Below the pieces are notes generated by a model. It made no database searches. It was not told where the DNA came from and saw only the letters and a list, made by a program, of their open reading frames with translations. The translations under genes and the position numbers were made by a program. This document shows, one piece after another, positions 3,741 to 61,392 of a stretch of DNA of 64,000 nucleotides. Within the stretch, counting starts at the first letter, position 1. The number at the start of each line of letters is the position of its first letter. Origin of the DNA: an uncultured SAR86 cluster bacterium (GTDB lineage Bacteria > Pseudomonadota > Gammaproteobacteria > Magnimaribacterales > D2472); NCBI GenBank assembly GCA_964275585.1, contig CAXYCJ010000006.1, positions 83,387 through 147,386 of the forward strand, written 5' to 3'.

Positions 3741-5525
3741 ATGAATAAAAATACACTTCGAAATATTGCAATCATTGCCCATGTTGATCATGGTAAGACT
3801 ACTTTAGTGGATAAATTATTGCAGCAATCTGGAACTTTAGATCGTAAAAGCATGACCACTGAACGGATAATGGATTCAAATGATCAGGAGAGAGAGCGCG
3901 GTATTACAATTCTTGCAAAAAATACTTCCATTAATTGGAAAGATCATCGCATAAATATTGTCGACACTCCTGGGCATGCAGACTTTGGTGGAGAGGTTGA
4001 AAGGGTTCTATCGATGGTTGACTCAGTTTTACTTTTAGTGGATGCAGTGGACGGCCCAATGCCCCAAACTAGATTTGTTACTCAAAAAGCATTTGAAAAA
4101 GGATTGAAACCAATTCTTGTTGTTAATAAAGTAGATAGACCTGAGGCAAGACCTCACTGGGTTCTAGATCAAGTCTTTGAGCTTTTTGATAACCTTGGCG
4201 CAACAGATGATCAGTTAGATTTTACTGTGATATATGCTTCTGCAATTAACGGCATGGCTGGTCATGAACCAGATGAATTGGCAGATGACATGACACCGCT
4301 TTTGGATATGATTATTGATAAGGTTTCAGCCCCTGATGTTGATGAGGAGTCTCCATTTAGAATGCAAATTAGTGCCTTAGATAGTAACAGTTATGTAGGT
4401 GTTATTGGTATAGGTAGGATCACGGGTGGATCTCTGAAGCCAAATGATCGAGCTGTAGTCATTAATAAAGATGGCAAGGAGCGTAAAGTAAAAATTTTAC
4501 AAGTTTTGGGTCATCATGGTTTAGAGCGAGTGGAGATCGATATCGCTAAAGCAGGAGATATTGTTTGTATTACTGGCGTTGAAGCATTAAATATTTCAGA
4601 TACCCTCTGTGATCCTGAGCACATAAATCCCATGCCATTATTGTCGGTCGACGAGCCAACTGTTAGCATGGTTTTCCAAGTAAATGACTCACCATTTTGT
4701 GGCAAAGAAGGAAAATATGTTACTTCTAGAAATATTAAAGATAGGTTAGACCAAGAGTTAATTCATAACGTTGCGCTAAGGGTTGAAGAGGGAGGGAGCG
4801 CTGACAAATTCAAAGTTTCTGGAAGGGGCGAACTTCATTTATCAGTATTGATAGAAAGCATGAGAAGAGAAAATTATGAAGTGGCGGTCTCTAAACCTCA
4901 GGTTATCCAAAAAGAAGTTGGCGATGAAATACATGAGCCCTTTGAAGTGGTGGTAATTGACATTGAAGAGGAGCATCAAGGATCAATTATGGAGGAGATG
5001 GGAAATCGAAAGGCTGATTTAAAATCTCTCGTGATTACCGAAAACGGCAGAATGAGACTTGAGTTTATGGCTCCATCAAGAGGAATGATTGGCTTTCGCT
5101 CACAGTTCTTAACTTTAACAAGTGGCAGTGGAGTTCTAACGAGCGTCTTTGATCATTATGGGCTTGCAAAAAAGGGTGAAATAGCTCAGAGGCAAAATGG
5201 TGTAATGGTCTCAATGATTGGTGGAAAGACTCTGGCTTACGCTCTATTTAACCTCCAAAACAGAGGTAGAATGTTTGTTGGACATGGGCTAGAGGTATAC
5301 AAAGGTCAGATTGTTGGCTTGCACTCAAGAGATAATGACTTACCAGTTAATCCAACTAAAGCTAAGCAATTAAATAATATTCGAGCAGCTGGTACTGACG
5401 AAAACCTTATTTTAACTCCTCATATACAACATACACTCGAGCAGGCTCTTGAATTTATTGAGGATGATGAATTGGTTGAGGTGACCCCTAAAAGCATTAG
5501 ATTAAGAAAAAAAACTATTAAATAA
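3741..5525 (+). CDS. typA: Translational GTPase TypA/BipA
   Basis: AHVDHGKTT (G1), DTPGH (G3), NKVD (G4), in an EF-G-like multidomain protein of the expected length. The ATG at 3741 ([12 protein letters not shown]) is preferred to the TTG at 3708 given in the ORF track. Confidence 0.95.
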
Positions 5526-10658: not shown

Positions 10659-10901
10659 ATGAATATTTATGTTGGAAACCTCCCATGGAGTATTGATGAC
10701 TCAGGTCTTGAGCAAGTTTTTGCTGAACATGGAACTGTAACATCGGCTAGAGTTATCACGGATCGTCAAACTAACCGCTCACGCGGGTTTGGTTTTGTTG
10801 AAATGTCTGATGGCGGCGAAAATGCCATTCAAGCATTGAACGATGCTGAAGTTGACGGTAGAAAATTAGTTGTTAACGAGTCTCGTCCAAGAGACGAATA
10901 G
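10659..10901 (+). CDS. RRM-type RNA-binding protein (copy 1)
   Basis: 80 aa. RNP-2 IYVGNL and RNP-1 RGFGFVEM. Confidence 0.9.
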
Positions 10902-10912
10902 GAAGGATTTAT

Positions 10913-11152
10913 ATGAATATTTACGTAGGAAATCTCCCTTGGAGTATAGATAGCTCAGGTCTCGAGCAAGTTTTTGCTGAACACGGTACCGTAACCTCTG
11001 CTAAAGTTGTCACTGATCGTGAGACTAATCGCTCACGTGGGTTTGGTTTTGTTGAAATGTCTGATGGCGGAGAAAATGCCATTCAAGCATTGAACGATGC
11101 TGAAGTTGACGGTAGAAAATTAGTCGTTAACGAGTCTCGTCCTAGAGATTAA
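10913..11152 (+). CDS. RRM-type RNA-binding protein (copy 2, tandem paralog)
   Basis: 79 aa. Four aa substitutions relative to copy 1, with the same RNP motifs. Own Shine-Dalgarno (GGAAGGA). Confidence 0.9.
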   Translation: MNIYVGNLPWSIDSSGLEQVFAEHGTVTSAKVVTDRETNRSRGFGFVEMSDGGENAIQALNDAEVDGRKLVVNESRPRD

Positions 11153-31091: not shown

Positions 31092-31564
31092 ATGAAAACA
31101 TTAATCCTCATCGCAGCCACCTTTTTCATAATCAATATCTATGCATTACCTCAATGTCCATCCGACACAGCTGCAAGATGGCATAACTGTTTTGGCACTT
31201 ACACTTTTGCCAGTGGAAGCAAATACGTTGGCGAGTTAAAGATGGCAAGCGGCACGGACAAGGCACTTCCACTTTTCCCAGTGGAGACAAATACGTTGGG
31301 GAGTATAAAGATGGCAAGTACCACGGACAAGGCACTTTCACTGTTGCCAGTGGAGGCAAATACGTTGGCGAGTACCAAGATGGCAAGAGGCACGGACAAG
31401 GCCACGGACAAGGCACTTACACTTCTAAGGGTGGGACTGAACAGACTGGATTTTTTTTGAATGGTTCATTTGTACCCTATCTCTGTGAAGAAATGGGGTT
31501 AACTCGAGGCACTGATGCATATGGGCAGTGTGTTATTAAATTAATAGAAGAAGTAACTAAATGA
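31092..31564 (+). pseudogene. Secreted MORN-repeat protein gene interrupted by a 1-nt frameshift
   Basis: Signal peptide MKTLILIAATFFIINIYA, then GSKYVGE. After 31236 the MORN consensus (YKDGKRHGQGT..) continues only in the +2 frame through to the TGA at 31562-31564. Repeat 1 is 68 bp against 69 bp for repeats 2 and 3 (GAGTTAAAG vs GAGTATAAAG). Confidence 0.7.
31194..31399 (+). repeat. Three tandem ~69-bp MORN-coding repeats
   Basis: Units start at 31194, 31262 and 31331, each GGCACTT..AAATACGTTGG.GAGTA..GATGGCAAG..CACGGACAA. An extra 12-bp GGCCACGGACAA partial repeat follows. Confidence 0.85.
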
Positions 31565-49177: not shown

Positions 49178-49267
49178 ATTAATGCCTTTGAAATATAACT
49201 AAAACCCTTAGAAATTCGCAATCAACTTATATGTAAGAAAAAACTTCAACTTTTTTACAAAAAGGTG

Positions 49268-49295
49268 TTGACACTTTTAATCAGAAGCGTATATT
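49268..49295 (+). promoter_or_regulatory. Sigma70-type promoter of module copy 1
   Basis: -35 TTGACA (49268-49273), 16-nt spacer, -10 TATATT (49290-49295). A/T tracts upstream resemble an UP element. Confidence 0.65.
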
Positions 49296-49300
49296 AAATA

Positions 49301-49519
49301 GACCAACTCGGACCGACTTACAAACAACTGCAGACGGGAGTAAGAGAGAAAGAGAAGGTAGAGACGAAGGGCGAAAGCGATACTAAGAGTCGACGATAAA
49401 AAAGAGCTTAGTACCCCACCAAGAAGGCAAGAGAAAACCTTCAAGGAGCTAAAGAAAATCTCACTTTAGACCCCTTCTAACCTCGAACTGAAGAAACAGA
49501 GCTTGCTCTGTTTTTTTTT
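49301..49519 (+). ncRNA. Predicted ~220-nt purine-rich RNA (unknown family), copy 1
   Basis: Bounded by the promoter above and the terminator ACAGAG-CTTG-CTCTGT + T9 (49496-49519). No ATG anywhere in the segment and no ORF of 60 aa or more on either strand. Confidence 0.55.
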
Positions 49520-49547
49520 GCCTCAAATTACTTATATTTTATTGCTT

Positions 49548-50391: not shown

Positions 50392-51291
50392 TTATTTTTC
50401 TTTTGCGAGCCAAGCTGTCATTCTTCCACCTAAAGGCGCCTTTAGTTGATCAGCACAGTAATCAACTATCTCAGATAGTTTTTGGAGATCCACACCAGTT
50501 TTATAGCCCATTTGATCAAGCATATTAGCTAGATCTTCTGTAGCAAGATTTCCTGCCGCGCCAGGAGCAAATGGGCAGCCGCCTAACCCCCCAATACAGC
50601 TATCAAATTTTCTAATTCCCTCAGCAAGTGCTGCGCACACATTAGCCAGTGCCATTGCTCGAGTGTCATGGAAATGACCTGATAAAATATTATGCTCAAA
50701 CTCATGAACGCATTTTTTAAATAATGAACCAACACTTGCTGGGTTAGCAGCACCAATAGTGTCAGCGAGTATAATTTCATCCGCTCCTGCACTTAGTAAC
50801 TTATTTGCTATATCAAGAACGGTTGCATTCTGTACCTTGCCTTCAAAAGGGCATTCCCAAGCAACTGAAACGTATGCTCGCGTTTTTAGATTTGAGTTTT
50901 TAGCATTTTTGAGGATATCGCAAGAGCTTTGAATAGTTTCGTTTAAGCTCATATTAATATTTTTTTGATTCATGGTTTCAGTTGCAGATGGCACAACTGT
51001 AATAATTTTTGCACCTGCTTCTTGCGCCATTTCAAAACCTTTCATATTTGGAACTAAGACAGAAATTTCACAACCTTTAGTCTCACCTAAGCCGTTAATA
51101 ATTTCTCCTGCTCCACTCATAGCTGGAACAGCTCTAGGATTAACAAAACTAGCAACTTCTATACCTGGAAGTTTAGCGTCAATAAGATGATTAATAAGCT
51201 CTAAGCGAGCCGCTGGATCTAAGATTGTTTTTTGGTTCTGGAGGCCATCTCTAGGTCCAACTTCGTTGATGTATACAAATTCTGAATTCAT
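50392..51291 (-). CDS. HMG-CoA-lyase-like (HMGL family) acyl-CoA lyase
   Basis: EVGPRDGLQN and GLGGCPFAPGAAGN signatures. Confidence 0.85.
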   Translation of the reverse strand: MNSEFVYINEVGPRDGLQNQKTILDPAARLELINHLIDAKLPGIEVASFVNPRAVPAMSGAGEIINGLGETKGCEISVLVPNMKGFEMAQEAGAKIITVVPSATETMNQKNINMSLNETIQSSCDILKNAKNSNLKTRAYVSVAWECPFEGKVQNATVLDIANKLLSAGADEIILADTIGAANPASVGSLFKKCVHEFEHNILSGHFHDTRAMALANVCAALAEGIRKFDSCIGGLGGCPFAPGAAGNLATEDLANMLDQMGYKTGVDLQKLSEIVDYCADQLKAPLGGRMTAWLAKEK

Positions 51292-52508
51292 TTAAGCATC
51301 TCAATTATTTTCTGAGCATCTAAGGACTCCAAATCTTCATCCGAATATCCTAACCACTCCATTAAAACCTCTCTAGTGTGCTCTCCCAAAAGAGGTGGTG
51401 CAAGAAACTCTTCATCTGTTACCTCTGATAGCTTAATCGGATTGCCTGGAATTTTTACTGAACCACCATTTCGATGAGGAACATCAACAAGCATATTTCT
51501 GTGCTTTACTTGCTCATCATTTATAGCTTGCTCAACATTATTTACTCTTGCGCATGGAACAGATTCTTTTTCTAGTAACTTTAGCCAATGCGAAGATTTT
51601 TCTTTTATTAATTCATCCTGAATAATTTTTTCAAGCTTGTCTTTATCTTTTTGCCTTTCATATGCCGTTACATATTTCGGGTCTTGCAATTCTCTGTTAT
51701 TGAACAATTTCAATAACCTTGGCCAGAATTGATCACCCACTGCTGCAATCACTATGGGATAATCTTTAGTAAGAAATGAGTTGTAAGGCATATGTACAAA
51801 ATGAGAATTACCAATAGGCTCTGGAACTATTCCTGACATGGTTTGCATGGTCGCCATGTAATTTAGCATGGAGATCTGACAATCAAGCATTGAAATATCT
51901 ACATGCTGACCCATTCCTGTATTAGCTCTATCAATAATGGCTGCCTGGATACCCATAACCGCAAACATGCCACCACTTAAATCTCCTATAGGTATTCCGG
52001 CTCGCATTGGCTCAGATGAGGAGAGACCAGTAATGGACATACCGCCCCCAAGCGCTTGAGCAATTTGATCAAATGCTGGGCGTTTAAAATTAGGCCCTGA
52101 CTCACCAAAACCGCTGACTGAGCAAGTAATTATCTTAGAATTAATAATTTTCAAACTCTCAAAATCAATTTTTAGTTTCTTGGTAACCCCAGCTGAGAAA
52201 TTACTTATTACTACATCTGCTTGCTCAACAAGCTCATAGAAAATTTTTAAACCTTCGGGTTTTTTTAAATCTAACGAGAGACTTTTCTTATTCCTGTTGA
52301 GCGTATAAAAATAAGCACCCATTCCATTAAAAGAATAATCTGGATCATTCTCTAATAGACGCCTCGTGCCTTCACCTTTTACTGGAGGCTCAATTTTTAT
52401 AACCTCACATCCTAGATCTGCAAGAATCATTCCACCATATGGTCCAGATAACATATGGGTTAAATCAAGCATTTTAATATTTTTTAGTGGCTTTCTAGAG
52501 GCTGTCAT
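51288..52508 (-). CDS. Family III CoA-transferase (CaiB/BaiF type)
   Basis: 406 aa. N-terminal LKNIKMLDLTHMLSGPYGGMILADLGCEVIKIEPP is typical of the family. Overlaps the lyase start by 4 nt. Confidence 0.85.
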   Translation of the reverse strand: MTASRKPLKNIKMLDLTHMLSGPYGGMILADLGCEVIKIEPPVKGEGTRRLLENDPDYSFNGMGAYFYTLNRNKKSLSLDLKKPEGLKIFYELVEQADVVISNFSAGVTKKLKIDFESLKIINSKIITCSVSGFGESGPNFKRPAFDQIAQALGGGMSITGLSSSEPMRAGIPIGDLSGGMFAVMGIQAAIIDRANTGMGQHVDISMLDCQISMLNYMATMQTMSGIVPEPIGNSHFVHMPYNSFLTKDYPIVIAAVGDQFWPRLLKLFNNRELQDPKYVTAYERQKDKDKLEKIIQDELIKEKSSHWLKLLEKESVPCARVNNVEQAINDEQVKHRNMLVDVPHRNGGSVKIPGNPIKLSEVTDEEFLAPPLLGEHTREVLMEWLGYSDEDLESLDAQKIIEMLK

Positions 52509-52670
52509 TTGTCTATTATATACAGATAGAAGTTAAGAGAAATATGTATCAAAATAGGACATATATCGATTATATAAATTTACTATTTTATGCTTTTAAA
52601 TAAGCATTGTTTAAATGATTGTTATGGTGTATAAAATTAGGACTACCATTGTTTTACTAGGGGGTAAAAT

Positions 52671-55130
52671 ATGTCTGTTTCTAACACATTTATTCGTTTT
52701 GCATTAGCGATTCCATTTTTCTTTATTTCATTAGCTTTACTTGCTGAGCCAACCCTTGAAGAAGTTGTTGTTTCAGCTAGGAAGGTAGATGAAAGTGTCC
52801 AGGATGTTCCAATTGCTATGAGTGTTTTCACTTCCAGTGATATAGAAGATGCTGGCATAGAGAGGCCTGAAGATTTTATAGCCTTGACACCGAATGTTGT
52901 CATGGCAAATACAGTTAATGTTGGAGATACCTTGGTAACAATTCGGGGCTTGACTTCAACTAGAGACGCAGAATCTAATTTTGCTTTCGTGGTAGATGGA
53001 GTCTTGCAAACCAACCCTAATGCATTCAACAGAGAGCTTTTGGATATAGCTCAAATTGAAGTTCTTAAAGGCCCCCAAGGAGCTCTTTATGGAAGAAATG
53101 CTACATCTGGAGCTATTTTGATAACAACCAAAGCTCCTTCCGAAGAATCCGAAAGTACAGCAGTCCTTGGAATGGGTATTAATAATTCCTCCAAGTTGCA
53201 ATATGTAAATTCTGGAAAAATAGGTGATAACGTATACACAAGATTTTCAGTGAGCACACGCGAAACTGATGGAGAGCACACAAACGTCTATTCAAATCTT
53301 AAAAATGTAGATTTCTTTGAAGACACAACTTTAAGAGGAAGGGTGTTAGTAGAGGAAGACGATAGTTCTTGGGATTTTAGGTTTGGAATGAGTGAGGCAA
53401 GTGGGGGAACCATTAATTTTAATGCTGTTTTTGCACTACCGGCATTCCAAGGGTTTGGAACCCCAGGGGCAACTCAGTTCTTTAAAGATGTTAATGAACA
53501 TCAATTTACATATATGTTCAATGTCCCTCCGGTCAATGAACAAGAAACATCAGACCTTTCTGTTAAATATACAGAAGACCTTGTGAACGGAAGAGAGTTT
53601 TCTGCGATATTTGCTTACAACCACCTTGAAGAGTTTTTACTTTCTGATGGTACCTCAGGTGCTTTCGGTGGTTACTTTGGAGTTCCTGCTTGCGCCGCTT
53701 CAAATACAGCAGCTAATTTAGCTTTGATTAATTCTTTACCTCCCGGTTTTTCATTTGCTGCTCCCGGAACAGCTCCTTCTGGAGCTAACTCTGTTTTAGG
53801 ACCATACTTGCCTCATACATGCGATGGGTATCAATTCCAATCACGTGATCAGGACGATATTTCTATCGAAGTAAAATTAACTAGCAATCAAAATGAATCA
53901 ACTCGATGGTTAGTTGGCGGATACTATGCTGAAATTGAAAGAGATGTTGCAGTTTCATACGGAGCTGATTTAGGCAAAGGTTTTGAATACAAGTCTTATG
54001 TTCCTTCAACGGGAAAAAATCCTACAGATTTAGCATTTGACGATACCTTCACTACAGACGTTTTCTCAATTTTTGGGCAATATTCCATAGACTTATCTGA
54101 GGTTACAGAGCTTTCGTTTGAAGGTAGGTATGACAAGGAAAAACGTTCTGTTGATAACAATGTTCCTGCTAGATCTTCGGCCCTATACTATGGTGGCGGC
54201 GCTCCAATTAATCCTGCTATGACAGCAGGTGGAAGTAAAATTCCCTCGCGAGAAAAATCATATGATCAGTTTCAACCTAAAATTTCTTTAACAACCAGCG
54301 CTGAAAATACAACAGTTTATGCTTCTTATGGAGTTGGCTTTAGATCAGGAGGATTTAATTCATCTGGAAGTGCTGCTTTAATAAATTCTCAGCTAAATAT
54401 TCCCGTTGGAGCTGGGTTAGGTGTTTCGGATTCATTTAATAAAGAAGTCTCTAAATCATTTGAAGTTGGGTTTAAGGGTAGATATTTAGACGGAAGATTG
54501 GAAATCAATGGCGCTCTTTTTGAAACTGAAGTTGATGATAATCAATTTTTTGAATTTTTTGCTGGACCTTGGGGCTTACTGAGAGTCGTAACTTCTATTG
54601 ACCAACTTGATCTTAGTGGCTCAGAGTTAGACTTTAAATATGCGCTTACTGATAATATCAAATTAGATGGCGGTGTTGGTTTTACAGATGGTGAAATTAA
54701 GAAGAATGCTCATCGACCTAACACTGTCGGCAATAATGCACCCTTAGCTCCTGAGCATACCTACAATCTTGGTATGCAATACGAAACATCTTTCTCAGCA
54801 AATTATGATCTCATAGTTAGGGTAGATTACATGGAAGTTGGTGAAACTTGGTTCCATACCGTGCAAAATAATCAGCAACCTTCGGTCTGGGGAGCTTTAC
54901 TTGGATTTCCAGTTGCATCTGATATGAGCAAAGCAGTTCGTGATCCTTATACTTTAGTTGACCTAAGAGCATCTATTATTGGAGAAAAATTAAGCCTTAC
55001 TCTATGGGGTAGAAATATTACTGACGAAGAGTATCTTGCAGAGATTATTCCAGCTCCAGAATTTGGTGGATCTTTTATTCATCAGGCACCTTATGCTACT
55101 TATGGGTTAGACTTAAAATATAATTTTTAA
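52671..55130 (+). CDS. TonB-dependent outer-membrane receptor
   Basis: 819 aa. Signal peptide, plug LEEVVVSARKVDESVQDVPIAMSVF, C-terminal ..YGLDLKYNF. Confidence 0.9.
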   Translation: MSVSNTFIRFALAIPFFFISLALLAEPTLEEVVVSARKVDESVQDVPIAMSVFTSSDIEDAGIERPEDFIALTPNVVMANTVNVGDTLVTIRGLTSTRDAESNFAFVVDGVLQTNPNAFNRELLDIAQIEVLKGPQGALYGRNATSGAILITTKAPSEESESTAVLGMGINNSSKLQYVNSGKIGDNVYTRFSVSTRETDGEHTNVYSNLKNVDFFEDTTLRGRVLVEEDDSSWDFRFGMSEASGGTINFNAVFALPAFQGFGTPGATQFFKDVNEHQFTYMFNVPPVNEQETSDLSVKYTEDLVNGREFSAIFAYNHLEEFLLSDGTSGAFGGYFGVPACAASNTAANLALINSLPPGFSFAAPGTAPSGANSVLGPYLPHTCDGYQFQSRDQDDISIEVKLTSNQNESTRWLVGGYYAEIERDVAVSYGADLGKGFEYKSYVPSTGKNPTDLAFDDTFTTDVFSIFGQYSIDLSEVTELSFEGRYDKEKRSVDNNVPARSSALYYGGGAPINPAMTAGGSKIPSREKSYDQFQPKISLTTSAENTTVYASYGVGFRSGGFNSSGSAALINSQLNIPVGAGLGVSDSFNKEVSKSFEVGFKGRYLDGRLEINGALFETEVDDNQFFEFFAGPWGLLRVVTSIDQLDLSGSELDFKYALTDNIKLDGGVGFTDGEIKKNAHRPNTVGNNAPLAPEHTYNLGMQYETSFSANYDLIVRVDYMEVGETWFHTVQNNQQPSVWGALLGFPVASDMSKAVRDPYTLVDLRASIIGEKLSLTLWGRNITDEEYLAEIIPAPEFGGSFIHQAPYATYGLDLKYNF

Positions 55131-55147
55131 CTAGGAATTAAATTTTT

Positions 55148-57208
55148 ATGTCGTATCGATTAGGCGTTGATGTTGGTGGAACCTTTACTGATTTTTTATT
55201 AATTAATGAATCTGATGGTTCCACGCATACTGCCAAGGTTCCTTCCACCCCCGAAGATTCATCGATAGGCGTCCTAAATGGTGTTTCAAGAATTTGCGAT
55301 CAATCAGGTGTAGATCCTAAAGATATCAAGCTAGTCATGCATGGAACTACAGTTGCAACTAATGCAGTTCTAACTGGTAATGGAGCAAAAGTAGGCCTAT
55401 TAACTACCGCAGGATACGAAAGTGTGCTCCAAGTTGCTCGTTCATTCTGTCCTGGTGGGCTTGGTGGCTGGGTTAGCTTTGTAAAGGGTCCTTTGCTAGC
55501 ACCTTTAGAGCTTACTTATGGGATAAAAGAAAGAACTGATGCATCGGGCGAAATTTCAATACCTTTAGATGAGCAGCACCTCAGAGAGCAATTAACCAAA
55601 TTAAAAACATTGGATCAAGTCGAAGCCTTAACAATTAGCTTTGTCAATTCATATATCAATAATAAGAATGAAGTTCTTGCTGCAAAAATTGCAAGTGAAA
55701 TTTTTACAGATGTACCTATTTCCATATCTAGTGAAGTTATTCCTGAGATGCAAGAATATGAAAGAGCTGAAACAACTGTCCTGAATTCTTATGTCCGTCC
55801 ACAAGTATCAAACTACGTTAACAACTTACAATCAAATCTAGAACAATCACTGGGAAGAGATGTTCAGTTATCTATTTTGAGATCTGATGGAGGGCTTGCG
55901 TCAAGTAGAGCTACTGGAGAGTCTCCAGTAAATCATTTGATGTCTGGTCCAGCTGGAGGAGTTGCAGGGGCAGTGCATTTCTGCAATCAAGCAGGCTATG
56001 AAAATATTTTAACCTTTGATATGGGTGGAACATCTACTGATGTAGCTTTGATACAGAATTCTAAAGCAAAGGTTAGAAGAGAGACTTTAGTTGGAGATGT
56101 GAGAGTCAAAGCTCCATCCGTTGACGTTAGAACTGTTGGTGCTGGTGGTGGCTCAATTGCTTTTGTACCCGAACTCACTAAAGCACTTCGTGTTGGACCA
56201 GAATCTGCTGGAGCAGTCCCTGGACCAGCAGCGTATATGAAAGGTGGAGATTTGCCTACAGTTTGTGATGCTAATATTGTTTTGGGTGTCCTTCCAAGCG
56301 ATGTTCAGCTTGGCGGTGATATGGTCATTGATAAAGAAGCGGCTGAAAAAGCAGTTCAAATAATTGCTGATGGAATTGGTATTGATCTTATGGAGGCAGC
56401 AGAAGGAATTGTCAGAATTGTAAATGAATCTATGTTTGGAGCCTTGAGATTAGTTTCAGTTGAACAAGGCTTTGACCCGAGAGATTTTGCTTTAGTTGGG
56501 TTCGGAGGCGCTGGACCCCTTCATGCAAATGCCCTTGGAATTCTCTCAAATTCTTTTCCTGTAATCATTCCGCCTGGTCCAGGAGTTTTATGTGCTTATG
56601 GTGATGCAACAACTCAAATTCAAGACGAAGCATCAAGGTCATATTTGGCTATGGCTCAGGACATCACTACAGACAAATTTTTATCAGATTTAAATGATCT
56701 TAAGATTAAAGCATCACAATCTTTATTAAAAGATGGTGTTAGTGATTCTAACCTTGAGGTAACTTATCAAGCAGATGTTAGGTATGCAGGCCAAGCATTT
56801 CAAATTACTGTTGAGTTTGATGAGAGGGAATACAAGTCGAAGGGAATTCAATTAATTACAGAAGCATTTGATGATGAGCATTATCAACTATTCACCTTTA
56901 AATTAAGTGATGGCCATGAAATCTTAATGATTAGAGCTATTGCAAAAGTTGCTCAGTCCGAAATTAAAGCACCTTCAATGACAGGCTCTTCTGGGTCCTT
57001 GCAAGATGCTGTTATTCAAGACTCACGCTTTTATAATGAAGCCAAATGGCATGATGCTAAAATTTATGATCGTAATAAGTTACATTCAGAATTAGTTATT
57101 CCAGGTCCTGCAATTGTTTCTGAGATGGACTCAACAACGGTGATACTTCCCAATCATGAAGCGGCGGTTGATCAAGTCGGTAACTTAATTATCAATCCTA
57201 TAACATAG
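55148..57208 (+). CDS. hyuA: Hydantoinase/oxoprolinase family, A subunit
   Basis: MSYRLGVDVGGTFTDFLL N-terminus, DMGGTSTDV, ~690 aa. Confidence 0.85.
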   Translation: MSYRLGVDVGGTFTDFLLINESDGSTHTAKVPSTPEDSSIGVLNGVSRICDQSGVDPKDIKLVMHGTTVATNAVLTGNGAKVGLLTTAGYESVLQVARSFCPGGLGGWVSFVKGPLLAPLELTYGIKERTDASGEISIPLDEQHLREQLTKLKTLDQVEALTISFVNSYINNKNEVLAAKIASEIFTDVPISISSEVIPEMQEYERAETTVLNSYVRPQVSNYVNNLQSNLEQSLGRDVQLSILRSDGGLASSRATGESPVNHLMSGPAGGVAGAVHFCNQAGYENILTFDMGGTSTDVALIQNSKAKVRRETLVGDVRVKAPSVDVRTVGAGGGSIAFVPELTKALRVGPESAGAVPGPAAYMKGGDLPTVCDANIVLGVLPSDVQLGGDMVIDKEAAEKAVQIIADGIGIDLMEAAEGIVRIVNESMFGALRLVSVEQGFDPRDFALVGFGGAGPLHANALGILSNSFPVIIPPGPGVLCAYGDATTQIQDEASRSYLAMAQDITTDKFLSDLNDLKIKASQSLLKDGVSDSNLEVTYQADVRYAGQAFQITVEFDEREYKSKGIQLITEAFDDEHYQLFTFKLSDGHEILMIRAIAKVAQSEIKAPSMTGSSGSLQDAVIQDSRFYNEAKWHDAKIYDRNKLHSELVIPGPAIVSEMDSTTVILPNHEAAVDQVGNLIINPIT

Positions 57209-57210
57209 AT

Positions 57211-59076
57211 ATGTCAGCAAAAATAATTGAAACTAATAACTCTCCTTTAAAGACAATAGATGTTGATGGCATCACTGTTGATTTAATTGAAAATGCCTTA
57301 AAGAATGCTAGAGAAGAGATGGATGCTTTAGTTAGTAGAACTGCTCTATCACCCGGAATTAGAGAACAGGGAGATTGCTTTCCAATGATAGCAAATCGCG
57401 AAGGAAAAATGGTTGTTGGTCAATTTGGTTCATTTATTCATGGTTTTACAGAAGCTTATGATGAAGAGATAGAAGAAGGCGATATCATCCTTACCAATGA
57501 TCCTTACATGTGCAATGCAGCAGTTTCACATTTACCAGATTGGATGGTTTTAAAACCTGTATTCAGAGATGGAAGGCACATAGCATGGTCTGCAATGTTT
57601 GGGCATATGTCTGATAATGGAGGGATGGTTCCAGGCTCTATACCAACCGAAGCGACAACCATCTTTCAAGAAGGGATTAGAATTCCTCCAATAAAACTTT
57701 ATAAAAAAGGAGAACTTCAGTCAGATGTATTGGAGCTTATTCTTCATAATGTCAGAACATCTCAATGGAATCGTTTTGATTTAAATGCACTTGTTGCTGC
57801 ATGCAATACTGCCGCGAAAAGATGTAATGAGATTGCAGATCGATTTGGGGATGATATTTTCTGCTCAACAATGAAAATTATGCTGCAAAGGAACTATGAT
57901 GCTATGAAGCATATTATTTCTATGTTTATTCCTGAAGAACCAAGAGAGTTCTCTGATTATATTTGTGATGATGGTATGGGCATGGGTCCTTATAAAATTC
58001 ATTGCAAGATGTGGCGGGAAGGAGATAAAGCTATTTTTGATTTCGTAGGCACAGATCCACAAGCTCAAAGTTCAGTTAATTTTTATCTTAACGAGGATAT
58101 GTTCAAAATGTTTTTTGGATCTTTCACCATTAACGTTGTTGATCCTCAAATTGTATTTAATGATGGGTTCTACGACTTGGTTGATGTCAGAATTCCACAA
58201 GGAACCCTCTTAAAACCTAATTATCCTGCCGCACTATCTGGAAGGACTCATGCACTGGGAAGAATTTTTGATGTTTTGGGAGCTCTATTAGGTATGGGTG
58301 CCCCTAACGAAATGTTGAATGCAGCAGGTTTTTCAGATTCACCCCATTTATTTTTCTCAGGTTACGATGATAAGGGAGAGTGGTTTCAGTTGTTCCAGAT
58401 AGGGTTTGGTGGAGTTCCAGGAAGGCCAATCGGTGATGGTCCTGATGGGCATTCCTTATGGCCATCATTCACAAATGTACCAAATGAATTTGTTGAGGCA
58501 TATTTTCCCCTAAGAGTAGAAACATATGAATTCATTGTTGACTCAGGTGGAGCTGGACTTCACAGAGGAGGCAACGGATTGTCAGTAGCATATAGATTTT
58601 TAGTAGACGGTCATATTGGCATTCATGATGATCGTTGGCTCACATATCCATGGGGAGTTAATGGAGGCAAGCCTGGCAAGAGATCAACTAAATTGCTTGT
58701 AAGAGCAGATGGATCCAAAGAGTACATTCCAGCAAAATGTGAGGGAGTAAAGGTTGAGAAAGGCGATCTTCTTTATTTTAATACTTGGGGCGGAGGAGGC
58801 TGGGGCGACCCCCTTCAACGTGATGCGGCTGTAGTCGCATCAGATGTCTCAAAAAAACTTGTTTCTATTGAGGGCGCCCTTAGATACGGCGTTGTAATTA
58901 ATGATGATCTCACAGTAAATGATAAAGAAACGGAATTATTAAGATCAGAGATGTCTAAGGATACTGTTCAAGATGAGATGTTTAATTTTGGCGGAACTAT
59001 AGAAGAAATCAAAGCCCGGTGTCTAGAAGAAACTCATCTAGAGCCACCTGTCTCTCCAACATTTCTGAATCAATAG
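57211..59076 (+). CDS. hyuB: Hydantoinase/oxoprolinase family, B subunit
   Basis: 621 aa. Blocks LTNDPYMCNAAVSHLPDW and SGGAGLHRGGNG are typical of HyuB. Starts 2 nt after hyuA. Confidence 0.85.
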   Translation: MSAKIIETNNSPLKTIDVDGITVDLIENALKNAREEMDALVSRTALSPGIREQGDCFPMIANREGKMVVGQFGSFIHGFTEAYDEEIEEGDIILTNDPYMCNAAVSHLPDWMVLKPVFRDGRHIAWSAMFGHMSDNGGMVPGSIPTEATTIFQEGIRIPPIKLYKKGELQSDVLELILHNVRTSQWNRFDLNALVAACNTAAKRCNEIADRFGDDIFCSTMKIMLQRNYDAMKHIISMFIPEEPREFSDYICDDGMGMGPYKIHCKMWREGDKAIFDFVGTDPQAQSSVNFYLNEDMFKMFFGSFTINVVDPQIVFNDGFYDLVDVRIPQGTLLKPNYPAALSGRTHALGRIFDVLGALLGMGAPNEMLNAAGFSDSPHLFFSGYDDKGEWFQLFQIGFGGVPGRPIGDGPDGHSLWPSFTNVPNEFVEAYFPLRVETYEFIVDSGGAGLHRGGNGLSVAYRFLVDGHIGIHDDRWLTYPWGVNGGKPGKRSTKLLVRADGSKEYIPAKCEGVKVEKGDLLYFNTWGGGGWGDPLQRDAAVVASDVSKKLVSIEGALRYGVVINDDLTVNDKETELLRSEMSKDTVQDEMFNFGGTIEEIKARCLEETHLEPPVSPTFLNQ

Positions 59077-59079
59077 CAC

Positions 59080-59670
59080 TTGAGTAAGCTCGAATCACAT
59101 CCTACTGGAATTGGCAGCTCTCCCGCTTTAGTGGTTGTTGATATGTGTCGAGGCTTTATTGATCCCACATCACCTCTTGGCTTTGAATGCGATGAATTAA
59201 TTGAAGCGAATATTAGATTGGTTAGTGAATTTCGAGAAAAGAATTTGCCTGTCATTTTTACTACCACTATCTATAGAGATCAATCTGAAGCAAGTGTTTT
59301 TAGATTAAAAATTCCTGCTTTAAATATTTTAAAACCCGGGTCTGAGGAAACATCATTTCTAGAAGAGCTGTCACCCAGTTCAAGTGATACGCTGATTGAA
59401 AAGAAATTTGCGAGTGCTTTTTTTGAGACTAATTTAGCCATTGAACTCCATCAAATGCATGTAGACTCAGTGGTTGTTTCTGGTGTTACAACAAGTGGCT
59501 GTGTTCGAGCCACAGCATTAGACTCTTTACAAAATAATTTTCTTACAATAATTGCAGAGGACTGCGTGGGCGACAGGGATTTGAATGCCCATCAAGCTAA
59601 TTTATTCGATCTACAAGCCAAGTATGCTGATGTAATTCTTTCTGAAGCAATTTGGAGAGAAAAAACTTAA
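59080..59670 (+). CDS. Isochorismatase-fold cysteine hydrolase (N-carbamoylsarcosine-amidase-like)
   Basis: ALVVVDMCRGF (Asp), EKKFASAFF (Lys), GVTTSGCVRAT (Cys) triad. TTG start 3 nt after the hyuB stop. Confidence 0.7.
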   Translation: MSKLESHPTGIGSSPALVVVDMCRGFIDPTSPLGFECDELIEANIRLVSEFREKNLPVIFTTTIYRDQSEASVFRLKIPALNILKPGSEETSFLEELSPSSSDTLIEKKFASAFFETNLAIELHQMHVDSVVVSGVTTSGCVRATALDSLQNNFLTIIAEDCVGDRDLNAHQANLFDLQAKYADVILSEAIWREKT

Positions 59671-59689
59671 ACTTTTTTGCAAAAAGGTG

Positions 59690-59717
59690 TTGACACTTTT
59701 AATCAGAAGCGTATATT
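59690..59717 (+). promoter_or_regulatory. Sigma70-type promoter of module copy 2
   Basis: -35 TTGACA (59690-59695), 16-nt spacer, -10 TATATT (59712-59717). Confidence 0.65.
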
Positions 59718-59722
59718 TAATA

Positions 59723-59941
59723 GACCAACTCGGACCGACTTACAAACAACTGCAGACGGGAGTAAGAGAGAAAGAGAAGGAAGAGACGAAGGGCGAAAGC
59801 GATACTAAGAGTCGACAATAAAAAAGAGCTTAGTACCCCACCAAGAAGGCAAGAGAAAACCTTCAAGGAGCTAAAGAAAATCTCACTTTAGACCCCTTCC
59901 AATCTCGAACTTAAAGAAACAGAGCTAGCTCTGTTTTTTTT
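59723..59941 (+). ncRNA. Predicted ~220-nt purine-rich RNA (unknown family), copy 2
   Basis: Terminator ACAGAG-CTAG-CTCTGT + T8. The stem is identical to copy 1 and the only change is in the loop. Confidence 0.55.
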
Positions 59942-59979
59942 CGCCTTAAATAAATTCATTTCATGTATGATTCGCGATT

Positions 59980-61392
59980 ATGACCCCTATTAAGACAAAA
60001 ATTATTGCAACCACTGGACCGAGCACGAACTCTTATCCAATGCTTAAAAAAATGCATGCTAACGGTATGGATGTTGTTCGATTAAATATGTCTCATGCGA
60101 CTCACAAAGAAGCTGCATTAATTATCGATCATGTTAATCAGTTAAATAAATTGCAATCAAATAGGTTTGGCCCACTTGGAATTTTACTTGATACCCAAGG
60201 TCCAGAGATTAGAACAGGAATTAGTAATCAGGATATAGATCTTAAGGTTGGCGATATTGTGAATCTAACCATAAGAGATGATGTGGATGTGGAAACATCA
60301 TCTATTAAAATTAACTACAAAGGTTTAATCAAAAGTGTTTCTAAGGGCTCAAAAATTACCATTGATAATGGTTTGATGAATTTTAAAGTACTGGCAAAAG
60401 ATAAAGAAAACCTGAGATGTAGAGTTTTAGATGGAGGCACCCTTGGAAGTAAGCGACATGTAAACCTTCCCGGTGTTAGAGTTGATCTCCCATCAATAAC
60501 AAAAAAAGATAAAAAAGATATTGCATTTGCTATTAAAAATAATGTTCCTTTTATCGCCTTATCTTTTGTGAGGAGTCCAAGTGATGTAATGGAACTCCGC
60601 GCTATTTTAAAGCGAAACAAATCATCTGCAAAAATCATTGCAAAAATTGAAAATCAGGAAGGGCTTGATAATATTCACGACATAACAAAAGCAGCAGATA
60701 TTATTATGGTTGCCAGAGGTGACCTTGGGATAGAGACAAATTTAGCTGATTTACCAAACATTCAGAGAAGAATAATGTACTCTACAGCCAAATGGGGAAA
60801 GCGCTCTATTGTTGCAACACATCTACTTGAGTCAATGATCGCTCATCCAGCCCCAACGAGAGCTGAAGTTACCGATGTAGCAAATGCAATATATGAGGGC
60901 GCCGATGCAGTTATGCTCTCAGGGGAGACTAGCGTAGGACAATATCCCCTTAAATGTTTGCAAATGCTTAAAAATATTGCAAGTAAAACAGAGCAATATA
61001 GAACTTTGGGTTATGAAGAGCATTTAACAGTTGATTCAGATTGGCAGAATATCGCTCTTGGAGCTAGAGATCTAGCTGAGCGTATTAAAGCAGATGGTAT
61101 CTTGGTTATTACAAGATCTGGTCAAACAGCCAACGTCATATCTAACACGAAGCCATTTAGAATGCCTATATATGCATTCACAAATAATCAAGAAACATAT
61201 CATCACCTGAGCTTAATAGGAGGCATTCAAGCTAAATTTATTAAATCCATTAGAAACCAAGCACAAACTATTTTAAAAATTAAAGCAGAATTACATAAAA
61301 CCATTAAACCTAGAAAAAACTTAAAATTTGTTTTGATTTCAGGTCTTTATTCAGAATCTCATACAGATTCCATTCAAGTTATTAAAATATAA
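59980..61392 (+). CDS. pyk: Pyruvate kinase
   Basis: TKIIATTGPS, RLNMSHATH, MVARGDLGIE, and a C-terminal regulatory domain. 470 aa. Confidence 0.92.
   Translation: MTPIKTKIIATTGPSTNSYPMLKKMHANGMDVVRLNMSHATHKEAALIIDHVNQLNKLQSNRFGPLGILLDTQGPEIRTGISNQDIDLKVGDIVNLTIRDDVDVETSSIKINYKGLIKSVSKGSKITIDNGLMNFKVLAKDKENLRCRVLDGGTLGSKRHVNLPGVRVDLPSITKKDKKDIAFAIKNNVPFIALSFVRSPSDVMELRAILKRNKSSAKIIAKIENQEGLDNIHDITKAADIIMVARGDLGIETNLADLPNIQRRIMYSTAKWGKRSIVATHLLESMIAHPAPTRAEVTDVANAIYEGADAVMLSGETSVGQYPLKCLQMLKNIASKTEQYRTLGYEEHLTVDSDWQNIALGARDLAERIKADGILVITRSGQTANVISNTKPFRMPIYAFTNNQETYHHLSLIGGIQAKFIKSIRNQAQTILKIKAELHKTIKPRKNLKFVLISGLYSESHTDSIQVIKI

Follow-up and report, generated by a model that had tools for sequence, protein, structure and literature searches.

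Positions 59658 to 59956 of the window, a 64,000-nt stretch of DNA from an uncultured SAR86 cluster bacterium, hold one of two copies of the gene for IMES-1, a structured RNA of the Rfam family RF02034. All coordinates given here are positions in this window. We found that the repeat unit is exactly one complete gene, consisting of promoter, RNA and terminator, and that the gene is a stand-alone RNA gene and not a leader of the pyruvate kinase gene (pyk) that follows it. Our overall reading, that 59658-59956 is a complete, independently transcribed IMES-1 gene, one of two copies, whose RNA acts in trans and pairs with itself loop to loop, seems to us fairly probable.

The repeat unit is a complete IMES-1 gene

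We scanned the whole window against Rfam 15 and obtained two full-length matches to RF02034 (IMES-1 RNA motif); the only other match was one tRNA. Each RF02034 match covers model positions 1-191 of 191, and the scores, 196.5 bits for copy 1 and 193.5 bits (E = 8e-44) for copy 2, stand against a gathering score of 81 bits. Both copies are members of IMES-1: they share its full model, its five-hairpin architecture and its marine source, and nothing sets them outside the family. The RNA family is already known. IMES-1 is said to have been found in 2009, by Weinberg et al. and by Shi et al., in marine metagenomes and metatranscriptomes as an exceptionally abundant structured RNA, reportedly among the most abundant non-ribosomal RNAs in metatranscriptomes of the surface ocean. 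To our knowledge, the 2009 descriptions gave it no known host and no known function. Our literature search, which had these founding papers outside it, returned nothing relevant on IMES-1, IMES-2/3/4, SAR86 small RNAs (sRNAs) or CsrA. The features of the two copies are as follows.

59658..59956, + strand: complete IMES-1 gene (second copy of the repeat unit); direct repeat with 49236-49533
59660..59686, + strand: A/T-tract region AAAAAACTTAAACTTTTTTGCAAAAAG, directly 5' of the -35; alternating A- and T-tracts 70-95% conserved in 103 loci
59690..59695, + strand: -35 hexamer TTGACA, from a promoter scan; GTGTTGACA nearly invariant in the family alignment
59712..59717, + strand: -10 hexamer TATATT after a 16-nt spacer, from a promoter scan; TA...T positions conserved in the family
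59723..59941, + strand: predicted IMES-1 transcript of ~219 nt, ends placed by promoter and terminator geometry
59729..59919, + strand: RF02034 match, 193.5 bits
59750..59755, + strand: hexamer CUGCAG between AA and A in the P1a loop (18 nt); proposed kissing-loop site 1, palindromic in 100 of 104 homologues
59811..59816, + strand: hexamer GUCGAC in the 19-nt loop of P3; proposed kissing-loop site 2, self-complementary in 104 of 104 homologues
59838..59845, + strand: junction J3/4, CCACCAAG, invariant in 104 sequences
59864..59871, + strand: junction J4/5, CAAGGAGC, near-invariant and Shine-Dalgarno-like; the sole GGA conserved family-wide
59918..59941, + strand: intrinsic terminator AACAGAG-CUAG-CUCUGUU + U8, an inverted repeat
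49236..49533, + strand: copy 1, IMES-1 gene; Rfam match 49307-49496, 196.5 bits
49268-49273, + strand: -35 of copy 1
49290-49295, + strand: -10 of copy 1
49328-49333 and 49389-49394, + strand: loop palindromes of copy 1
49511-49519, + strand: U-run of copy 1

The promoter, TTGACA-16-TATATT, matches the consensus at 11 of 12 positions, and the transcript is predicted to start ~6-8 nt past the -10. The A/T-tract region, which overlaps the isochorismatase stop codon (59668-59670), resembles an UP element when set beside the rrnB P1 UP consensus. Because this UP-like tract, the promoter, the RNA and the terminator are conserved family-wide and the sequence past the U-run shows no conservation in the family, the repeat unit is exactly one complete gene.

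The near-consensus promoter with its UP-like tract is an indirect sign of abundance, as are fusions of IMES-1 to RNA-virus contigs. Near-full-length IMES-1 sequences lie at the ends of the IMG/VR contigs L010 (1-172; model positions 19-191) and L011 (1877-2060; model positions 1-180). L010 encodes a picorna-like RNA-dependent RNA polymerase (RdRP_1), an RNA helicase and an Rhv capsid. Since L010 is thus a picorna-like RNA virus, it was assembled from cDNA, which is indirect evidence that IMES-1 is transcribed. The fusions are most likely cDNA or assembly chimeras that arose from a very abundant RNA. IMES-1 was also seen at the end of the IMG/VR contig L007 (1926-2009).

Pairwise alignment of 59658-59914 with 49236-49492 gave an ungapped direct repeat of 97% identity, the copies being 10.4 kb apart, and the similarity extends past the terminator to 59956 in copy 2 and to 49533 in copy 1. 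Over 59658-59941 the copies differ by ~10 substitutions and one 1-nt insertion or deletion. This agrees with the original prediction for this element, which had counted about 10 substitutions and 1-2 such indels in the same places. The differences lie in the upstream A/T tracts (CTTCAAC vs CTTAAAC; TTTTTTACA vs TTTTTTGCA), directly 3' of the -10 (TATATTA vs TATATTT), in the purine core (GGTAGAG vs GGAAGAG; GACGAT vs GACAAT), in a cluster before the terminator that holds the 1-nt indel (TTCTAACC...ACTGAAG vs TTCCAATC...ACTTAAAG) and in the terminator loop (CTTG vs CTAG). Every one of them falls at an unpaired or family-variable position. The -35 and -10 hexamers and both terminator arms are the same in the two copies, as had been claimed. 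Also as described, the 5' edge of the repeat runs over the end of an isochorismatase-fold open reading frame (ORF; Pfam PF00857; 59080-59670), whose TAA at 59668-59670 falls within the repeat. The view that the module is functional and not decaying is borne out: both copies score as full-length IMES-1, the differences between them keep to unpaired or family-variable positions, and promoter and terminator are conserved in ~100 homologues.

Covariation strongly supports the IMES-1 fold

The family alignments comprised 103 distinct loci with their flanks and 104 distinct RNAs. The predicted transcript, 59723-59941, folds at -48.4 kcal/mol (z = -2.2). Its five-hairpin architecture comprises P1/P1a and a multi-branch P2 around P3, P4 and P5. 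Across 34 core pairs in the 104 sequences, 82% of cells were paired, compared with 64% after shuffling and 32-52% with slid partners. Double-change cells in the core helices numbered 749 against 235 expected, and compensatory changes were found in each core helix. Thus, the Rfam secondary structure of IMES-1 is strongly supported by comparative evidence. The low pairing count of helix 9, the terminator, is an artifact of misalignment. MAFFT misplaces both the terminator and the P3-loop hexamer of the HIMB1674-type clade (HIMB1674 is the SAR86 isolate discussed below), which makes column-based pair counts too low. Therefore, we sought the loop palindromes without alignment and compared them with shuffles.

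The terminator stem (ACAGAGC / GCUCUG) and its U8 are nearly invariant among very divergent IMES-1 genes, and the loop varies. Near-invariance of a stem is unusual for a terminator and suggests that the hairpin belongs to the functional RNA. In the P3 loop, the conserved A-rich end (AAUAAAAAAGAGCU, 59817-59830) is complementary to the 3' terminator arm and U-tract (59927-59940); the equivalent in copy 1 is 49398-49406 with 49508-49516. Within this end, AAAAAAGAGC is able to pair with the U-run and the 3' arm of the terminator. The whole family keeps the A-run, the GAGC part is absent in the HIMB1674-type clade, and covariation gives no guide to the pairing. This A-rich end might hold down the 3' U-tail as a clamp, or it might compete with the terminator.

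Two hairpin loops carry self-complementary hexamers

The hexamer in the P1a loop is CUGCAG in 77 of the 104 distinct homologues, CUCGAG in 18 and CUUAAG in 5. Its flanks, AA and A, are invariant, and its central dinucleotide is GC, CG or UA by clade. The hexamer in the P3 loop occurs in 9 types, always with an A-rich run directly after it. Some are Watson-Crick palindromes (GUCGAC, 42; GCUAGC, 15; GUUAAC, 10; GUAUAC, 5; GGUACC, 4), and the others are compatible with G-U pairing (GUCGAU, 20; GUCGGC, 4; GUUGAC, 2; GUGCAU, 2). All of its pair cells (312/312) hold standard pairs. On a neighbor-joining tree built with the loops masked, this hexamer underwent at least 15 type changes and at least 19 pair-state changes.

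Composition-matched shuffled loops contained a self-complementary hexamer in 14% of cases, and we saw none with this property in the other loops, junctions and linkers of the RNA. Even on the MAFFT columns, the palindromic pairs were 94% paired, compared with 83% for shuffled and 23-59% for slid pairs, with 43 double-change cells against 9.4. The 28 P3 hexamers that are not Watson-Crick palindromes all have G-U and never A-C. Thus, the constraint acts on the transcribed strand as RNA and not on DNA. Within a single chain, a 6-nt palindrome is unable to pair with itself, so an intermolecular reading is the natural one. These patterns suggest that the loop hexamers are symmetric kissing loops and that the RNA is probably a homodimer or oligomer. 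We put at about even the chance that IMES-1 is a self-assembling RNA, with two palindromic loops per ~215-nt monomer that would give closed dimers or else chains and oligomers in SAR86 cells. For the hexamer duplexes, we predicted energies between -2.6 and -8.2 kcal/mol, so tertiary context and a high concentration would matter.

Loops of this kind have precedents. The HIV-1 dimerization initiation site is a purine-flanked loop, A-A/G-GCGCGC-A. Like IMES-1, this site presents 4-6 self-complementary nt in a hairpin loop. So do the loops L9.3 of OLE and L21a of GOLLD, for which the same inference from a palindrome has been confirmed by cryo-electron microscopy (Kretsch et al. 2025, PMC12286853). 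In kissing-loop RNAs the palindrome is upheld by double substitutions; so it is in IMES-1, with purine flanks AA-CUGCAG-A. IMES-1 differs from OLE, GOLLD and HIV-1 in that it is small (~215 nt), has two such loops per molecule and has larger loops, of 18-19 nt. The palindromic loops of IMES-1 were not found reported in the literature that we searched.

We propose the following mechanism. A strong promoter would give a very high RNA level, and the extra gene copy would raise the dose. The transcript would end at the hairpin and U8 and would act in trans as a folded RNA particle. The CUGCAG of P1a and the GUCGAC of P3 would pair with the same hexamers of a second IMES-1 molecule, and the active species would be either a homodimer, its two contacts lying on a single two-fold axis (C2), or a chain or oligomer with alternating contacts. 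The invariant junctions (CCACCAAG, CAAGGAGC, GAAAGC and AAGAGA) would form a tertiary core or a partner-binding surface. We infer in this way that IMES-1 is very highly expressed, trans-acting and self-associating. The self-pairing hypothesis would be cheap to test in HIMB1674 and would group IMES-1 with the recently found homo-oligomeric bacterial RNAs. If true, IMES-1 would be the smallest and most abundant natural quaternary assembly made of RNA only, or on an RNA scaffold.

The window also holds a 254-nt tandem direct repeat, 89% identical, that corresponds to two adjacent genes (10659-10901 and 10913-11152, + strand). They encode single-RRM proteins of 79-80 aa (PF00076, E ~1e-18 each), each with a clear AGGA-type ribosome-binding site. 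These duplicated RRM proteins are a candidate partner of IMES-1.

IMES-1 is a stand-alone gene and pyk most likely has its own promoter

A census of neighbors covered the 108 IMES-1 instances with a callable downstream ORF. Downstream neighbors belong to 25 protein families or clusters, and in 54 of the 108 loci the downstream gene is convergent, typically with its 3' end abutting the IMES-1 terminator. Since the downstream gene is convergent in half of the loci, IMES-1 is not a 5' leader but a stand-alone RNA gene. The downstream genes include the following.

pyk: 29 loci, same strand
DUF1285 protein: 18 loci, convergent
oxaloacetate decarboxylase beta: 12 loci, convergent
pyruvate dehydrogenase E1: ~7 loci, same strand
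SSF symporter: 5 loci, same strand
KDPG aldolase: 4 loci, convergent
acyl-CoA dehydrogenase: 4 loci, convergent
patatin-like: 3 loci, same strand
LacI-glucokinase fusion: 3 loci, same strand

Upstream neighbors vary (IDO-like, ETF-QO, GH2, isochorismatase), with a divergent IDO-like gene in 25 loci. Neighbors are enriched for pyruvate-node genes (pyk, aceE, oadB, eda, glk), which could be inherited synteny.

In the window, pyk (59980-61392; PF00224/PF02887) starts 38 nt past the last T of the U-tract (59941), the distance given before, and we likewise found no Shine-Dalgarno sequence upstream of it. The further claim that pyk has no obvious promoter of its own was not confirmed.

59966..59971, + strand: -10-like TATGAT, a feature of the pyk neighbor and outside IMES-1, 8 nt before the pyk ATG; candidate leaderless-mRNA promoter

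This box is conserved in relatives: divergent SAR86 lineages have TATGAT, TATCAT or TATAGT 7-9 nt upstream of the pyk start codon. At the patatin-like gene the hexamer is TATATT (49533-49538), 9 nt upstream of the ATG. Among 499 SAR86 ORF starts, -10-like hexamers peaked 6-7 nt before the ATG, with 43 cases at these two positions together against a background of ~8 per position, and ~26% of these starts had a Shine-Dalgarno-like motif. The -10 peak and the few Shine-Dalgarno motifs suggest that leaderless mRNAs are frequent in SAR86. From this pattern, pyk is most likely expressed as a leaderless mRNA from its own -10. A leaderless pyk explains the missing Shine-Dalgarno sequence without the module. 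Some read-through into pyk from the very strong upstream promoter is possible; in our model it would add little to pyk transcription.

The original prediction had favored a cis-acting element that would give pyk and a lipase (the patatin-like gene) a shared regulatory input, with an sRNA as the fallback. That shared input is contradicted by the 25 downstream families, by the 54 convergent loci and by the patatin gene being adjacent in only 3; in addition, the pyk -10-like box is kept whether or not IMES-1 lies upstream. The comparison with the pyk upstream regions of relatives, which had been suggested as a check, also went against the cis model: three loci without IMES-1 (L089, L039 and L096) keep the box. 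It is the fallback sRNA model that proved correct, and the annotation no longer needs to link pyruvate kinase and a lipase in their regulation, a link that was false. Instead of IMES-1, the three loci (L089 ~1300-1420, - strand; L039 ~3950-4066; L096 ~4970-5086) have a perfect palindrome, TGACAACGATGTCA or TGACAACGGTGTCA. It lies ~40 nt before the pyk -10-like box and resembles a LacI-family operator.

Alternative explanations

Several observations weigh against a trans-acting RNA that pairs with itself. At the P1a site, 4 of the 104 homologues have AUGCAG, which leaves a 4-bp core. Some hexamer duplexes are weak (GUUGAC, -2.6; CUUAAG, -3.2; GUUAAC, -3.4 kcal/mol), and the 18-19-nt loops exceed those of classic kissing loops. 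Lastly, in 29 of 108 loci, drawn from several lineages, a co-oriented pyk follows the terminator at 37-75 nt, which would fit some functional coupling by read-through. A cis leader or attenuator would build on this arrangement: the strong promoter would drive pyk, and the patatin-like gene at copy 1, through regulated read-through of the terminator. Indeed, pyk is the commonest downstream gene and is always on the same strand, a promoter scan found no full consensus promoter between terminator and pyk, and other same-strand neighbors act in pyruvate metabolism (aceE, ~7 loci; glk, 3). Like attenuation leaders and riboswitches, IMES-1 has a promoter, a structured RNA and a terminator before a metabolic gene (pyk) in a quarter of its loci. 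It is unlike them in the convergent gene found in half of the loci, in its unrelated downstream genes (25 families, with patatin in 3 loci only) and in its constitutive-looking terminator. The hairpin and U8 are nearly invariant, and no antiterminator pairing seems to be conserved family-wide; the complementarity of AAAAAAGAGC and GCUCUGUUUUUU is lost in the HIMB1674-type clade. Moreover, the TATGAT/TATCAT box 7-9 nt before the pyk ATG is present in lineages without IMES-1. We therefore consider a cis leader improbable. A rather different idea is a mobile or selfish repeat, of the kind of miniature inverted-repeat transposable elements or repetitive extragenic palindromes (MITE/REP-like), or a decaying duplication without function. 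Two copies 10.4 kb apart and the many assemblies that break at IMES-1 might suggest this, but there are no terminal inverted repeats beyond the A-run/T-run complementarity of the UP tract and terminator, and one or two copies, a lower bound, were seen per genome. Strong covariation, purifying selection and loci that are orthologous across genomes effectively refute it, and we give it practically no weight.

Trans-acting RNAs of other kinds have also to be weighed. IMES-1 could be a monomeric base-pairing sRNA, or an RNA that binds the ribosome or 30S subunit through the exposed AAGGAG, with the palindromes incidental. The former would be in keeping with the conserved unpaired CCACCAAG, CAAGGAGC and CUCGA and with the terminator, whose long U-tail recalls Hfq-type sRNAs, and the invariant exposed AAGGAG stands out because a Shine-Dalgarno sequence is present in only about a quarter of SAR86 ORFs. 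A monomer, however, leaves unexplained how two hexamers stayed self-complementary through at least 15 type changes, and the elaborate fold with much invariant junction sequence is atypical of sRNAs that pair by a seed; we judge this explanation unlikely. A sponge of the CsrB/RsmY/RsmZ type, in which an abundant RNA titrates a CsrA/RsmA-like regulator through GGA motifs and so steers central carbon metabolism, is a prospect to which we give little credence. There is a likeness: CsrB, RsmY and RsmZ are likewise abundant sRNAs with genes of their own, often multi-copy, rich in purines and GGA and ended by a strong terminator, and IMES-1 is a duplicated, purine-rich RNA that has a Rho-independent terminator behind its strong promoter. 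Three A(N)GGA-like sites occur in the window RNA (ACGGGAG in the P1a loop, GAAGGAAGAG in a linker and CAAGGAGC in J4/5), and the neighbors include pyk, aceE, oadB, eda and glk. However, only the GGA of J4/5 is conserved; other clades have ACGAAGA or AUGCAGA at the loop site and AGAAGAAGAG or AGAGAAAGAG in the linker. The conserved junctions and the multi-way junction fold of IMES-1 are also unlike Csr/Rsm RNAs, and no activator box is conserved. A GacA-box-like sequence, TGTAAG-N6-CTTCAA (49233-49250), lies ~35 nt upstream of the copy 1 -35 and not at copy 2. We rejected the idea of a GacA box because copy 1 alone has the sequence and the family shows no conservation at positions 5' of the A/T tract. 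In ~1 Mb of SAR86 sequence, a small and biased sample, we found no csrA; a tblastn search for CsrA, RsmA, Hfq, ProQ and Crc gave no matches in the window and these ~1 Mb of SAR86 loci, which are partial genomes and make the result uninformative.

The two-copy arrangement is old in the window lineage

The genome FRAM18_bin297 has the same two IMES-1 loci, 10,430 bp apart (L080, L083), and is thus a close relative of the window genome. Orthologues in these two genomes show 8-10 differences and paralogues 15-21, so the window copies are diverging independently under purifying selection. In three other genomes (L098, L108 and L087) the order is GH2, IMES-1, patatin, IMES-1, then pyk or glk, with copies 1.2-3.4 kb apart. 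Their RNA copies are identical within a genome and differ at 2-3 positions between genomes, which indicates concerted evolution by gene conversion. The high identity of the window copies had been ascribed to recent duplication or concerted evolution. This is partly supported: the two-copy arrangement is old and shared with FRAM18_bin297, concerted evolution applies to the three other genomes, and the copies in the window lineage are diverging.

The segment between the window copies (50392-59670, ~9.3 kb), also present in FRAM18_bin297, encodes an HMGL-like lyase, CoA-transferase III, a TonB-dependent receptor, hydantoinase A/B and isochorismatase. In L098, L108 and L087 the patatin gene alone lies between the copies, and the window segment appears to reflect insertion or rearrangement between the repeated RNA genes. 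Elsewhere, tandem copies ~300-400 bp apart are only 85-87% identical (L043, L059, L127), and in OX044367.1 and CALSPZ010000001.1 two copies are hundreds of kb apart. IMES-1 is present in at least one or two copies per genome, and many assemblies break inside it, as expected of a repeated gene.

IMES-1 is carried mainly by SAR86

Among the matches listed from a species-representative genome collection, the conserved IMES-1 pattern occurred at more than 118 loci; homologue counts rest on these pattern matches, and family totals are lower bounds. The matches come overwhelmingly from SAR86 (Magnimaribacterales), in single-cell, metagenome-assembled and complete genomes. By nhmmer, 126 instances proved to be IMES-1, and about a dozen pattern matches turned out to be due to chance. 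The matches in Ottowia, Brevundimonas, Pseudomonas, Cocleimonas and others, and in the viral contigs L008, L009, L012 and L013, were due to chance and gave no IMES-1 by nhmmer. Outside SAR86, a Porticoccaceae long-read metagenome-assembled genome (L026) has IMES-1 at 168.6 bits, and several genomes labeled 'Woeseia' have it at 105-112 bits.

HIMB1674 (L079), which bears the taxon name Magnimaribacter mokuoloeensis and is the only SAR86 isolate (PMC11582366), carries IMES-1 at 145.5 bits, near 437,660-437,888 of its genome (CP151794.1); the isolate paper does not mention non-coding RNAs (PMC11582366). A marine origin is borne out: the coding sequence of the window pyk protein lies on a contig of 66 kb from a Fram Strait metagenome (FRAM_RAS_F4_06_2017_1-c000000000791), and the homologues are in SAR86 single-cell and metagenome-assembled genomes. 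These results tie an orphan RNA to SAR86, among the most abundant bacteria of the surface ocean, including its only cultured strain. What is newly added to IMES-1 is its carrier clade (SAR86 and a few genomes labeled Porticoccaceae or 'Woeseia'), its gene anatomy, its multi-copy arrangement with gene conversion in some genomes, and its two palindromic loops.

Apart from the features above, we observed three direct repeats of 69 nt, 65-88% identical, at 31169-31374 of the window.

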